A stretch of DNA of 17,754 bases from positions 1 through 17,754 of the forward strand of contig CAYVOC010000027.1 of NCBI GenBank assembly GCA_964453345.1, written 5' to 3'. A program made the translations under genes and the position numbers. The DNA is from an uncultured Aquificales bacterium. GTDB lineage: Bacteria > Thermosulfidibacterota > Thermosulfidibacteria > Thermosulfidibacterales > Thermosulfidibacteraceae. A model generated the notes under the pieces. The model searched no databases. It saw nothing but the letters and a program-made list of their open reading frames with translations, and was not told where the DNA came from. Shown here piece after piece: positions 28 through 17,729 of the stretch. The stretch's first letter is position 1, and every line of letters starts with the position of its first letter.

Positions 28-102
28 GGGCGGATAGCTCAGGGGGAGAGCACCGGCCTTACAAGCTGGGGGTCGCAGGTTCAAATCCTGCTCCGCCTAC
101 CA
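28..102 (+). tRNA. tRNA-Val (anticodon TAC), CCA encoded
   Basis: Cloverleaf read by eye: acceptor GGGCGGA/TCCGCCT + A-CCA; D arm GCTC..GAGC; anticodon arm CCGGC-CT-TAC-AA-GCTGG; T arm GCAGG-TTCAAAT-CCTGC. Confidence 0.97.
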
Positions 103-108
103 CTAAGC

Positions 109-185
<77 letters not shown>

Positions 186-8358: not shown

Positions 8359-9077
8359 CCTATTATGAGCCTTACTGCGACCACCATCAGGGCTGCAAGC
8401 ACGAATTTCCTTATGAATCCGTGCCCCTTCTGAACGGCTAAGTTAACCCCTATGTAGGCCCCCGTTGCGTTCCCTGCGGCAAGCACAACCCCCCATAAAG
8501 GATCAACCTTGCCTCTGTATGCAAAGATGGCGAGGGCAAATACAGTGAAGATGAGAATGACGAGCACCTTTACCGCGTTTGCCCTGACAAGATCCATTCC
8601 GTAGAGGCTGAGCGCCGCCAGGATGAAGAAGCCAACCCCTGCCTGTATAAATCCGCCGTATATTCCGATGAGGAAAAATATTGCGGGAAGCAGTTTTGGA
8701 CTGGGGCGCAGTCTTTCCGCCACCCTTTGGGGATCGTATAGGGTTATGAAGGAGATGAGGATCATGAGGGCACCAAAGATTCTTTTGAAGGTTGCATCGG
8801 GGATGGCGGAGGCCATGTAGGCTCCGGCAATTGCCCCCATGGCTGCAGGGATGAGTATGCCTTTTAGGTTTTCTGTGGGAACCAGATCAAAGTGCTTGAA
8901 CCTTTTTACCGCCATGATGTTTTGAAAAAGGATGGCTATTCTGTTGGTTCCGTTTGCGACCGTTGGCGGAAGCCCCATGAAGATCATGACCGCGACGGTG
9001 ATGAAGGATCCGCCCCCTGCTAAGGTGTTTATGATGCCCGCAACAAGTCCACATACAAAAAGCAGAAGAAACTTCAT
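8355..9077 (-). CDS. Sulfite exporter TauE/SafE (TSUP) family membrane protein
   Basis: 240 aa polytopic membrane protein with AGIINTLAGGGS, PPTVANGTN, GIYGGFIQAGVG and ANAVK motifs. ATGA overlaps at both ends. Confidence 0.92.
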   Translation of the reverse strand: MKFLLLFVCGLVAGIINTLAGGGSFITVAVMIFMGLPPTVANGTNRIAILFQNIMAVKRFKHFDLVPTENLKGILIPAAMGAIAGAYMASAIPDATFKRIFGALMILISFITLYDPQRVAERLRPSPKLLPAIFFLIGIYGGFIQAGVGFFILAALSLYGMDLVRANAVKVLVILIFTVFALAIFAYRGKVDPLWGVVLAAGNATGAYIGVNLAVQKGHGFIRKFVLAALMVVAVRLIIG

Positions 9078-9970
9078 CCCAACAGCTCCTCAAGATACGC
9101 TGCGTTTCTTCTGATCAGCTCATCCCGTGATACGCCCAGCAGCTCTTCGAGATACTCCATCCCCTCGGACAGGGTTATGGCCGATCCAAAAAGCCTTCCG
9201 TCTTCGGTGAAGCAGGCTCCATCTTTTCTGACAACCTTCTGGTCCCCAAAGCTCGCCTCTTCCAGCCGGGATGCGGAAAGAGGGGTTCCGTCGGATACGG
9301 GTATGATTCGCTCCCCCTTTATTCTGAACGCCAGCTCAATAGTTGCGGGATGCAGATGGTGGGGTTCCGGTATGATCTCGCAGTAGGCATCGCTTAGAAG
9401 GGCGGCTGCAGCAGGACCGGGGCTTCTGTGATGAAAGCCCCCCATGGCGTTGAAAAGATGTGTGAAGACAAGAACTCTATGCTTCTTGCAGTAATCTATG
9501 CACTCCTCATAGCTGGCCGTTGTGTGGCCCACGGCTATCTTTACCCCGTTCGCCTTGAGGATCTCCGCCACCTTCCCTTCAGGGTCCATTTCCGGCGCCA
9601 CCACAACAAGCCTTATGACGTCCGAAAAATCTTCAATGACGCCTTTGAACTCTTCCAGACTCCACGCGCCTATGGCACTCGGATCCATACCGCCCGCCTT
9701 TTGGGGATTTATAAATGGCCCCTCTATGTATGCTCCAAGGATGCCGGATTCCACCTTCATGGCTTCTCTGATGGCTTCCAGTATCCTGCGGGTCCTTGAG
9801 GGCGGAAGACAGATGAGGGTGGCCAGCAGATGGGTGGTCCCGGCTCCCTTCTGCGCCCTGTATGCCGCAAGTATCTTTTCCACTTTTGATGTGGCGAAGG
9901 GGTGTCCTCCCCCTCCGTGCACATGCGGATCAAAGACAGGCAGAGTCTTGCCTTTTTTCGCTTCCTTCAT
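9074..9970 (-). CDS. nagA: N-acetylglucosamine-6-phosphate deacetylase-like amidohydrolase (compact, 298 aa)
   Basis: DPHVHG, GTTHLLAT, EGPFIN, VAPE, VGHT, THLFNAM, HHRSPG, VSDG and GRLFGS match NagA motifs. Start taken as the ATG at 9970; the ORF-track extension to 10603 is antisense to prfB. Confidence 0.8.
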   Translation of the reverse strand: MKEAKKGKTLPVFDPHVHGGGGHPFATSKVEKILAAYRAQKGAGTTHLLATLICLPPSRTRRILEAIREAMKVESGILGAYIEGPFINPQKAGGMDPSAIGAWSLEEFKGVIEDFSDVIRLVVVAPEMDPEGKVAEILKANGVKIAVGHTTASYEECIDYCKKHRVLVFTHLFNAMGGFHHRSPGPAAAALLSDAYCEIIPEPHHLHPATIELAFRIKGERIIPVSDGTPLSASRLEEASFGDQKVVRKDGACFTEDGRLFGSAITLSEGMEYLEELLGVSRDELIRRNAAYLEELLG

Positions 9971-10011
9971 TTTTATATACCTGCTTCCACTTTTGACGGG
10001 AGGATTAAAGC

Positions 10012-11197
10012 ATGTTTGAGGTGGAAAGGGAAGTCTATGAGGAGCTAAAGGAGAGAGCAGAAAAGCTAAGGAGGTTTCTTTGACGTAGATGGGAAGAGGG
10101 AATACCTGGCTAAGCTGGAAGAAAAGGCCGCATCCCCTGAGATATGGAACGATCCCCAGAAGGCTGCGAAGGTTCTGAAGGAGAAGAAAAGGGTGGAGCT
10201 GCTTCTGGAGGAGTGGGATCAGCTTGAGGCGAAGCTTGAGGATCTGGAGGTTCTGATAGAACTTGCGGAAGAGGAGGAGGATCTCTCCCAGCGGGAGGAG
10301 ATAGAGAAGGAGATAGAGGCGCTGAAAAAACGTATAAAAAAGCTTGAGGTGAAGACGCTTCTTTCCGGGGAAAAGGATCCCAACAACGCCATCGTTGCCA
10401 TAAACCCGGGGGCTGGTGGAACCGAAGCCCAGGACTGGGCGGAGATGCTCTTTAGAATGTATACCCGCTGGGCCAAGGCCAAGGGGTTTGAGGTTGAGAT
10501 AATGGATTACCAGCCCGCCGAGGATGCGGGGATAAAGAGCGTCACCTTTCTGGTGAAGGGACCCTACGCCTACGGTTATCTTAAGGGGGAAAGTGGTGTT
10601 CACAGGCTTGTCAGGATTTCACCCTTTGATGCCAACAAGCGCAGACACACCTCCTTCGCATCGGTCTTTGTTTATCCCGAGATAGAGGAGGATATAGAGG
10701 TTGAGATAAGGCCTGAGGATCTGAAGATAGAGACCTTCAGGGCCTCCGGACCCGGTGGCCAGCACGTTAACGTTACCGATTCTGCGGTGAGAATAACCCA
10801 CATTCCCACGGGGATAGTTGTTCAGTGTCAAAACGAGCGCTCCCAGCACAGAAATAAGGAGATGGCCATGAAGATCCTCAGGGCCAGGCTCTACGAGCTT
10901 AAGAGAAAGGAGCTTGAGAAGGAGAAGGAGGAGCTTGAGAAGAGCAAAAAGGAGATCGCCTGGGGCAATCAGATACGCTCCTACGTTTTGCACCCCTTTA
11001 AGCTGGTGAAGGACTTGCGAACCGGTGTGGAAAAAAGTAATGTGGCAGCGATGGCCGTGCTTGACGGTGAGATAGACGATTTTATAGAGGCGTTTTTGTT
11101 CTCCCAAAAGGGGGATACAACACACGCCCTGGACTCTTCGGGGGGTGCCCGTTCGGGTTCCCGGGGGGATGAAGGGGCGGAGGATAAAACCAAATAG
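10012..11197 (+). CDS. prfB: Peptide chain release factor 2, programmed +1 frameshift (join 10012..10080, 10082..11197; 394 aa)
   Basis: SD GGGAGG then ATG 10012, 23 codons ([23 protein letters not shown]), then CTT TGA C. The +1 frame continues DVDGKREYL...EIWNDPQKA into the tracked ORF, which has [10 protein letters not shown], the SPF tripeptide, GGQ and WGNQIRSY. Confidence 0.98.
10069..10084 (+). promoter_or_regulatory. RF2 autoregulatory +1 frameshift cassette
   Basis: AGGAGG-TTT-CTT-TGA-C: internal SD, 3-nt spacer, slippery Leu codon and weak UGA-C stop, the canonical prfB layout. Confidence 0.97.
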
Positions 11198-11209
11198 GGA
11201 GGAGGTATT
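11118..11209 (+). ncRNA. rpsB 5' leader (t44 / S2 autoregulatory RNA-like)
   Basis: Directly upstream of rpsB with the recalled hallmarks of the E. coli rpsB leader: 5' CACAC, long stem (CGCCCT 11125-30 with GGGGCG 11174-79; CTCTTCGGG with CCCGGGGGG), GGGTGCCC-GTTC-GGG apical part, then GGAGG-ATAAAACC. Recognised by eye, not by covariance model. Confidence 0.8.
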
Positions 11210-12025
11210 ATGGCTGTAGTCACCATGAAGCAGTTGCTGGAAGCAGGTGTCCATTTCGGACACCAGACCAGGCGGTGGAATCCCAAGATGAAGCCCTACA
11301 TCTACACCGCCAGAAACGGCATCTACATCATCGACCTTCAGAAGACCCTTCAGCTTTTTGATAAGGCCTATCAGTTTGTCAGGGACAGGGTGGCCGACGG
11401 CGCCAAGGTTCTCTTTGTGGGAACCAAGAAGCAGGCCAAGGAGACCATTGAGGAGGAGGCCAAGCGCTGCGGCATGTATTACGTGAATCACCGCTGGATC
11501 GGCGGAACCCTCACCAACTTCAGGGTGATACGCCAGAGTATTGAGAAGCTCAAAGAGCTGAAGAGGATGAGGGACGAGGGATACTTTGAGAACTTCACCA
11601 AGAAGGAGCGCATGAAGCTTCTGAGAAAGATCGAGAAGCTTGAGCGCAACTACAAGGGCATTGAGGACATGGAGGAGCTTCCCGACATCATCTACATCGT
11701 GGACCCACGCAAGGAGAGGAACGCCGTCAGGGAGGCCCGCAAGATGGGTATTCCCATTGTTGCCATAGTGGACACCAACTGTGATCCCGATGAGATAGAT
11801 GTGATCATTCCCGGAAACGATGACGCCATAAGGGCGATAAGACTGATAACCTCAAAGATAGCCGATGCCGTGATAGAGGGGCAGCACATCTTTAGAGAGA
11901 AGATCGGGGCAGAGGAAGAGGTGGTGGAAGAGGCTGAGGTTTACACCATGGGGGAGGAAGAGGAGAAGACGCCCTTTGAGGAGGGCTATGAGGAGTATGA
12001 AGACATTTACGATGAGGAAGAATAG
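11210..12025 (+). CDS. rpsB: 30S ribosomal protein S2
   Basis: [56 protein letters not shown]. Strong SD GGAGGAGGT. Confidence 0.99.
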
Positions 12026-12037
12026 GGAGGTGATGGC

Positions 12038-13924
<1,887 letters not shown>

Positions 13925-17657: not shown

Positions 17658-17729
17658 AGCCGGCGGGCGGATTTGAACCGCCGACCTGCTGATTACGAGT
17701 CAGCTGCTCTACCGCTGAGCTACGCCGGC
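17658..17729 (-). tRNA. tRNA-Thr (anticodon CGT), CCA not encoded
   Basis: Reverse complement reads GCCGGCG-TA-GCTC-AGCGGTA-GAGC-A-GCTGA-CT-CGT-AA-TCAGC-AGGTC-GGCGG-TTCAAAT-CCGCC-CGCCGGC-T, followed by a T-tract. Confidence 0.97.

Follow-up and report, generated by a model that had tools for sequence, protein, structure and literature searches.

The autoregulatory leader of the Escherichia coli rpsB–tsf operon, described as t44 (RF00127), as the rpsB motif (Meyer et al. 2009) and as the S2-interacting RNA (Fu et al. 2013), is located directly 5′ of rpsB–tsf (accessible parts of PMC3616713, PMC2704228, and PMC10931766), and the classic repression of this operon by ribosomal protein S2 has been reviewed (PMC10931766, accessible part). 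A predicted leader of the same type was analyzed here in a 17,754-nt stretch of DNA from an uncultured Aquificales bacterium of the phylum Thermosulfidibacterota (contig CAYVOC010000027.1; the whole stretch is referred to below as the window), in which the prfB gene of release factor 2 (RF2) directly precedes rpsB on the + strand and its open reading frame (ORF) runs through the leader. This element shares with its E. coli counterpart, besides its position, the CACAC box, the long helix P1, a GGU(G) in an internal loop with a short hairpin behind it, a box resembling GGAGG past P1, and, 3′ of P1, a putative partner for a pseudoknot; in both, the ribosome-binding site itself lies outside the structure. 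Unlike the E. coli leader, which is untranslated and has its own promoter, it is situated inside an upstream coding sequence; moreover, the element of this phylum scores under the Rfam threshold, and the binding of S2 to it is predicted. The RNA is a known and widely distributed S2-interacting leader, as far as the accessible text of PMC3616713 and PMC2704228 describes it, and what is new is that it is entirely coding. Autoregulatory leaders of ribosomal proteins are usually treated as untranslated, whereas here a complete S2 operator together with its predicted pseudoknot also forms part of the coding sequence of an essential translation factor.

The closest known parallel is the L20 operator of E. 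coli (infC–rpmI–rplT), where a ribosomal protein pseudoknot lies partly in an upstream translation-factor gene. According to the accessible part of PMC1888825, the pseudoknot and the second site of this operator include infC residues, e.g., infC318–354 and infC542–543. The L20 operator differs in the protein (L20), the RNA, and the factor (initiation factor 3, IF3), and only part of it lies in infC, with intergenic sequence following, whereas in the present locus the operator is coding over its whole length and the stop codon of the factor gene abuts the Shine–Dalgarno (SD) sequence. Translation of infC (IF3) is likewise autoregulated. The autoregulation of RF2 by +1 frameshifting (CUU UGA C with an SD-like element) is represented here by a canonical cassette; the novelty concerns the 3′ end of the ORF. 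Translational coupling by termination–reinitiation is a general principle of bacterial operons, and the locus resembles such systems in that the stop codon precedes the AUG by 12 nt with the SD between them and the upstream ribosome would unfold a structure before the start; it differs in that the unfolded structure is a putative protein-binding operator, the supply of ribosomes is set by the frameshift, and the coupling is proposed. In the literature searched, nothing relevant by title to a prfB/rpsB overlap was found, and supplementary alignments of the S2 motif could include such cases.

The +1 frame of prfB (10082–11194, +) comprises 371 residues followed by TAG 11195–97, and its RF2-homologous part (10082..11098, residues 1–339) contains the PCRF and RF-1 domains. 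The NCBIfam profile TIGR00020 matched the product with 534.1 bits (cut-off 370) and covered residues 1–339 of 371; Pfam PF03462 and PF00472 (PCRF and RF-1 domains) both matched as well, and the motifs GGQ (as SGPGGQ) and SPF were present in the translation. Solved RF2 chains matched the product with E = 6e-120, and the alignments with the best of them ended at query residue 339–342, the chains themselves stopping 2–5 residues later. The tail following the FIEAYL-like motif was 4–17 residues long in 47 outgroup RF2 genes, i.e., those measurable by regular expression among 75 with a complete 3′ end. The profile, the solved chains, and the outgroup tails bore out the statement of the initial annotation that RF2 normally ends soon after FIEA, and the end of the TIGR00020 match at residue 339 agrees with its observation that prfB extends 32 codons past the conserved end. 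These 32 codons (11099–11194) had no counterpart in RF2 family models or solved RF2 structures, and a search of a large protein collection showed the tail region to be common to only four database proteins. An AlphaFold2 model of RF2 with the tail (13-row alignment) was poor, with a mean pLDDT of 51.4 and a pTM of 0.32; even the conserved RF domains were below 50, and hence the model is uninformative on the tail. Gene callers will annotate such genes as RF2 with an unexplained 30-residue tail.

The tail consists of a variable and apparently unconstrained linker (FSQKGDT, 11099..11119, +) and of codons that contain the whole S2-type leader (11120..11191, +). The TAG (11195..11197, +) is located 3 nt past the pseudoknot ACC and 12 nt before the rpsB ATG and, as had been noticed earlier, touches the rpsB SD GGAGGAGGT (11198..11206, +); an equivalent GGAGG precedes the rpsB start in 17/17 phylum loci. 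Over 11099–11215, the only stop in the prfB frame was TAG 11195, the second frame had none, and the third had TGA 11170 and TAA 11185, which confirms in all three frames the earlier claim that no + frame stops within 11099–11169.

The predicted leader, all elements of which are on the + strand, contains helices P1 (11125–30 with 11174–79), P2 (11134–42 with 11160–68), and P3 (11148–50 with 11155–57), the internal loop GGGUG (11143–47), a conserved GAGG (11180–83), and an ACACAC box 5′ of P1; a pseudoknot pairing is predicted between GGU (11144–46) and ACC (11189–91). A search at the Rfam gathering score gave no t44 match in the whole window, tRNAs being the only matches. A permissive E-value search of 10950–11350 (401 bases) located t44 (RF00127) at 11103–11189 with 30.2 bits (E = 1.3e-4), so that of the expected match to the Rfam t44 model the similarity proved real, whereas the gathering score of 44 bits was missed; scans at the Rfam threshold will overlook this leader. 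The t44 model is reported to be of gammaproteobacterial origin (PMC3616713, in its accessible part).

The leader was compared among 18 species genomes of the phylum taken from GTDB (one order, three families, seven genera), of which 17 were informative; G012, in which rpsB lies at the edge of a contig and RF2 had no match, was left out. The t44 RNA was the top Rfam match at the junction in 12/17 loci (25.9–35.6 bits). That the region is not an S2 operator and that its likeness to t44 arose by chance in a G-rich coding tail would be in keeping with the gathering score not being reached by any phylum locus, with the five of 17 loci that had no t44 match at E ≤ 10, and with the unexceptional single-sequence fold of the leader (−45.3 kcal/mol, z = −1.43). 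Such an explanation is very improbable in view of the covariation of the three helices and the drop in the register controls, of the retention of the RNA boxes across reading frames and beyond stop codons together with the conservation of third codon positions, and of the location of the sites found in other phyla, all of them upstream of rpsB, as set out below.

The boxes common to the 17 phylum leaders were ACACACG...GGUGCC-hairpin...GGGGCGGAGG...ACC...GGAGG-AUG, and the motif was located immediately 5′ of rpsB in 17/17 loci. Canonical pairs occupied 102/102 cells in P1 and 51/51 in P3 (17 leaders), with 3/6 and 1/3 pairs changed on both sides, respectively, and 99/108 cells in P2, with 7/9 pairs changed on both sides (families f1 and f2). 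Altogether, 11/18 pairs of P1, P2, and P3 had changed on both sides, and shifting the 3′ partner by 1–3 columns reduced the canonical fraction to 0.16–0.76. These counts come from an alignment that was hand-anchored on the proposed structure and from kin genomes, and they consequently overstate independence; they are supportive and do not amount to a probability. MAFFT with RNAalifold on the 17 leaders recovered P1 alone, because P2 and P3 covary and misalign, and the alignment fitted to the covariance model R1 put P2 and P3 of family f3 in the wrong place; therefore, the helices were anchored by script. Both GGU (11144–46) and ACC (11189–91, 9–11 nt past P1) were invariant in 17/17 leaders with varying flanks, and covariation therefore cannot prove their pairing. 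The two invariant elements agree with the published rpsB motif, where the internal-loop GGU or the junction is pseudoknotted to the 3′ extension that follows P1; in E. coli, regulation is lost when the GGU loop is deleted (accessible parts of PMC3616713 and PMC2704228).

The model R1, built from seven leaders of family f1, matched the 17 phylum junctions and nothing else among 30 RF loci. When 151 genomes were searched, R1 matched a single site in each of 17/18 phylum and 19/133 outgroup genomes, and 14/14 of the outgroup sites inspected were directly upstream of an S2 homologue (50–65% identity). The t44 match, the covariation, and R1 uphold the earlier proposal that the extra codons cover a structured t44-like S2 leader, and comparative evidence indicates that 11120–11191 is a genuine S2-type rpsB leader with three helices and a predicted GGU/ACC pseudoknot, for which S2 binding is predicted as well. 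Outgroup rpsB leaders with an R1 match include those of L200, L204, L206, L209, L215, L219, and L220, and several outgroup leaders outscored the phylum's own family f3 with R1.

The prfB gene directly adjoined rpsB, with the leader, in 17/17 informative genomes, and the overlap that had been noted in the window was thereby corroborated. The prfB ORF ended inside or after the leader in 16/17 genomes and crossed the whole operator in 9/17. The stop codon was located 5 nt before the CACAC box in one genome (L012), just past the P1 5′ strand in three (L015, L016, and L028), in the P3 loop in four (L007, L008, L010, and L011), three bases after the ACC and immediately 5′ of the SD in six (L001–L005 and L009), and within or after the SD in three (L006, L013, and L014). 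Complete read-through as a conserved feature, which the initial annotation might have led one to expect, was not supported by this distribution.

An assembly or sequencing error, or a point mutation that very recently removed a stop near 11105, might have produced the overlap, and the observation that the in-frame codons CAA 11105 and AAG 11108 are each one substitution from a stop was correct; the source genome is, moreover, a 64-contig assembly. Against this, full read-through was found in six other species represented by independent assemblies from three genera (prfB 81–90% identity) and in two further species of another family, which leaves this explanation extremely improbable. The alternative of a recent stop loss is rejected because the arrangement, with prfB abutting rpsB, was present in 17/17 informative genomes. 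Judging from this comparison of genomes, neither faulty assembly nor the recent loss of a stop explains the overlap, and the arrangement is ancient.

Outside the phylum, no S2 gene was found downstream of RF2 in 80 genome and 79 metagenome outgroup loci. Of these 159 loci, 128 had at least 400 nt downstream, 15 had less, and 16 lacked a complete RF2 3′ end; RF2 of the 80 genome loci was 52–63% identical, and a contig scan gave no phylum member. Conversely, no RF2 gene was found upstream of 14 outgroup leaders, and no credible upstream ORF overlapped the leader core. The 89-codon stop-to-stop frame over the leader in L214 also overlaps an S9-like gene and looks spurious, and the frame upstream in L209 terminates 5 nt short of the R1 match. 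In L207 and L214, the rpsB leader is preceded by a gene ending in ...QFSKR, which looks to us like the end of ribosomal protein S9, so that rplM–rpsI may precede rpsB there. The only close relative found in the metagenome scan was the 2230-nt contig L111, which was identical to the window RF2 over residues 1–337; it ends at ...DDFIEA, before the linker and leader, and is uninformative for the tail.

Variability by codon position was compared in seven collinear relatives (genera g1, g3, and g4; 7/17). In the RF2 body (the last 690 nt of the homologous part), 31, 16, and 205 of 230 sites were variable at codon positions 1, 2, and 3, respectively, versus 4, 6, and 9 of 24 in the leader core (11120–11191). 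Third positions were far more conserved in the leader core than in the prfB body (Fisher p = 3.5e-8), and first and second positions were slightly less conserved than in the body. In the linker (11099–11119), approximately 19 of 21 positions were variable among these relatives, and its length varied too. The box is read as CAC GCC in family f1 and as ACA CGC in families f2 and f3, and in the genomes with early stops the remaining leader motif was equally conserved though non-coding. Recurring peptide blocks of the tail (THA, GGA, and EGAEEK) were translated RNA boxes.

A functional C-terminal extension of RF2, selected as a protein, would account for the recurrence of the blocks THA.D and EGAE(D/E)K in family f1 and for the in-frame length changes of this family. 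These blocks, however, are what the conserved boxes ACACACGC and GGGGCGGAGG of the RNA encode, and the third codon positions of the core were as conserved as the first and second, far above the prfB body; the other families use another frame or stop 13–20 residues after FIEAYL, there was no counterpart of the tail in solved or outgroup RF2, and sharing of the tail by as few as four database proteins speaks in the same direction. Selection of the tail as a protein is therefore improbable. The pattern of substitutions indicates that the RNA is the selected element and the RF2 tail peptide its passenger, a case in which RNA-level constraint shapes a "free-rider" protein tail; a passenger tail is equally compatible with neutral and with selected overlap. 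In family f1, the RF2 end and the CACACG box were 18, 21, 24, or 27 nt apart, all multiples of 3, and the P3-loop insertion in L004 was +3, whereas the distance was out of phase in L012, whose stop precedes the leader. If these events are independent, such in-frame changes (approximately (1/3)^3 to (1/3)^4) hint weakly at a frame constraint.

Since the whole operator lies within the prfB ORF, whose stop precedes the rpsB AUG by 12 nt, ribosomes finishing RF2 would unwind P1–P3 and the pseudoknot; the anatomy of the junction requires that they open the operator and, in this genus, that they terminate at the SD of rpsB. The corresponding proposal of the initial annotation is mechanically sound, the ORF holding the whole operator, and the geometry for translational coupling is present, with the prfB stop within a few nucleotides of the rpsB SD and AUG. 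No terminator was found between prfB and rpsB on the + strand by scanning, and a 12-nt gap leaves no room for one, so that the complete prfB mRNA is almost certainly also the rpsB mRNA. A frameshifted ribosome that completes RF2 would unfold the operator and displace any bound S2. With TAG 11195 in its A site, this ribosome presumably holds the 3′ strands of P1 and of the pseudoknot and covers the SD, and upon termination it could hand over to rpsB by termination–reinitiation. In this way, part of the translation of rpsB would be coupled and insensitive to S2, in proportion to the flux of ribosomes that complete RF2, and tsf–pyrH–frr may share in this by virtue of their tight packing; ordinary repression by S2 would act on the operator while it is folded between passing ribosomes, as well as on any mRNA started at an internal promoter. 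That a coding S2 operator is present and that RF2-completing ribosomes drive S2-insensitive translation of rpsB is considered probable, with appreciable room for doubt. Such a coupling would join two classic feedback loops, namely, the RF2 frameshift and S2 autorepression, and the locus offers a natural test of a protein-binding regulatory RNA that is regularly translated through by ribosomes.

Several points weigh against this coupling, in addition to the sub-threshold t44 scores and the hand-anchored alignment given above. The leader is nearly free of stop triplets in every frame, and read-through is consequently passive once no stop precedes the leader. A stop codon adjoining GGAGG fits the extended SD consensus, and its position may accordingly reflect the SD context. 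The stop was TAG in six, TGA in seven, and TAA in four of the 17 genomes and alternated within this genus; owing to the labile position of the stop, termination on the SD is specific to lineages and not a phylum-wide requirement. The weight that the initial annotation had placed on a terminal UAG read by RF1 is not sustained, as this varied identity argues against a conserved role for UAG and RF1. Comparison of the relatives suggests that the stop codon moves about among the positions at which the RNA can accommodate it. In the outgroups, sigma-70-like hexamers are apparently present 11–20 nt 5′ of the CACAC box (read by eye in printed flanks, not scanned), which suggests that the ancestral leader began near the transcript 5′ end, and in the window an internal promoter may supply most of the rpsB mRNA.

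A neutral origin of the overlap by spacer loss is accordingly a serious rival. According to this explanation, the spacer and the former stop codon of prfB were lost through genome compaction, so that the ORF passively continues into a G-rich leader devoid of stops; most rpsB expression comes from a promoter in the last prfB codons, and the crossing ribosomes are few and have no meaningful effect on S2/EF-Ts output. The drift of stop position and identity, the unconstrained linker, the tail peptide not conserved as a protein, the leader without stops in all frames up to 11169, the promoter-like hexamers just upstream of outgroup leaders, and the small genomes (1.2–2.0 Mb) with spacers of 5–12 nt would all fit it, as would a weak candidate internal promoter, TTGACG-16 nt-TATAGA, located within prfB codons at 11061..11088 (+). 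On the other side, no promoter was detected near the leader on the + strand by a consensus scan, and the candidate TTGACG and TATAGA hexamers varied among relatives and were largely dictated by the codons of the conserved LDG...FIE peptide; no conserved synonymous block was found in the last 690 nt of prfB, where 0–3 third positions per 10 codons were conserved. In addition, 16/17 ORFs end inside or after the leader, with never a free spacer between ORF and leader, the length changes in f1 and the insertion in L004 are all multiples of 3 (a weak hint), and ribosomes translating prfB would melt the operator whatever promoter is used. On balance, the neutral explanation is regarded as possible, though on the unlikely side.

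A further step beyond the probable coupling is that the overlap is a selected device: low RF2 would send more frameshifted ribosomes through the operator, evict S2, and raise S2/EF-Ts, and possibly UMP kinase and ribosome recycling factor (RRF), whereas excess S2 would impede the completion of RF2 or destabilize the prfB–rpsB–tsf–pyrH–frr mRNA. This step is doubtful and is put forward tentatively; if true, it would constitute a two-way link between termination capacity and the supply of ribosomes and translation factors, carried phylum-wide by one dual-coding sequence.

The prfB gene begins in frame 0 (10012..10083, +) with ATG 10012, followed by 23 sense codons and an in-frame TGA 10081–83. 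The programmed +1 frameshift cassette (10069..10084, +) consists of AGGAGG 10069–74, a 3-nt spacer, and CTT TGA C 10078–84; it was kept in 14/14 phylum loci holding the 5′ part of prfB, is of the textbook RF2 type, and the frameshift site itself has nothing unusual. A divergent nagA-like amidohydrolase gene is located at 9074–9973 (−); it scores 190 bits, under the cut-off of 225.65, and lacks a match to the first ~57 positions of the profile. This gene starts 38 nt (9974–10011) from the prfB ATG, and the prfB promoter therefore lies in or overlaps it. A longer nagA-like reading, the 509-codon antisense ORF 9074–10603, was checked and rejected as a spurious extension.

Downstream of the junction, rpsB (11210..12025, +) encodes ribosomal protein S2 of 271 aa (TIGR01011, 363 bits, cut-off 76.3) and is followed by tsf (12038–12637, +) after a 12-nt spacer, pyrH (12643–13377, +) after a 5-nt spacer, frr (13367–13924, +) with an 11-nt overlap with pyrH, and then uppS. 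The TAG of prfB and the ATG of rpsB share a frame (11210 − 11195 = 15) with no stop between them, and read-through of UAG 11195 would give an RF2–S2 fusion; the −15 stop-to-ATG spacing recurs in L002 and L004 and not in the other relatives. S2 carries a very acidic C-terminal extension of ~45 residues (window 11885–12022), TIGR01011 covering residues 3–226 of 271. The three tRNA genes that matched in the window at the Rfam gathering score were located at 28–99 (+), 109–182 (+), and 17658–17729 (−).

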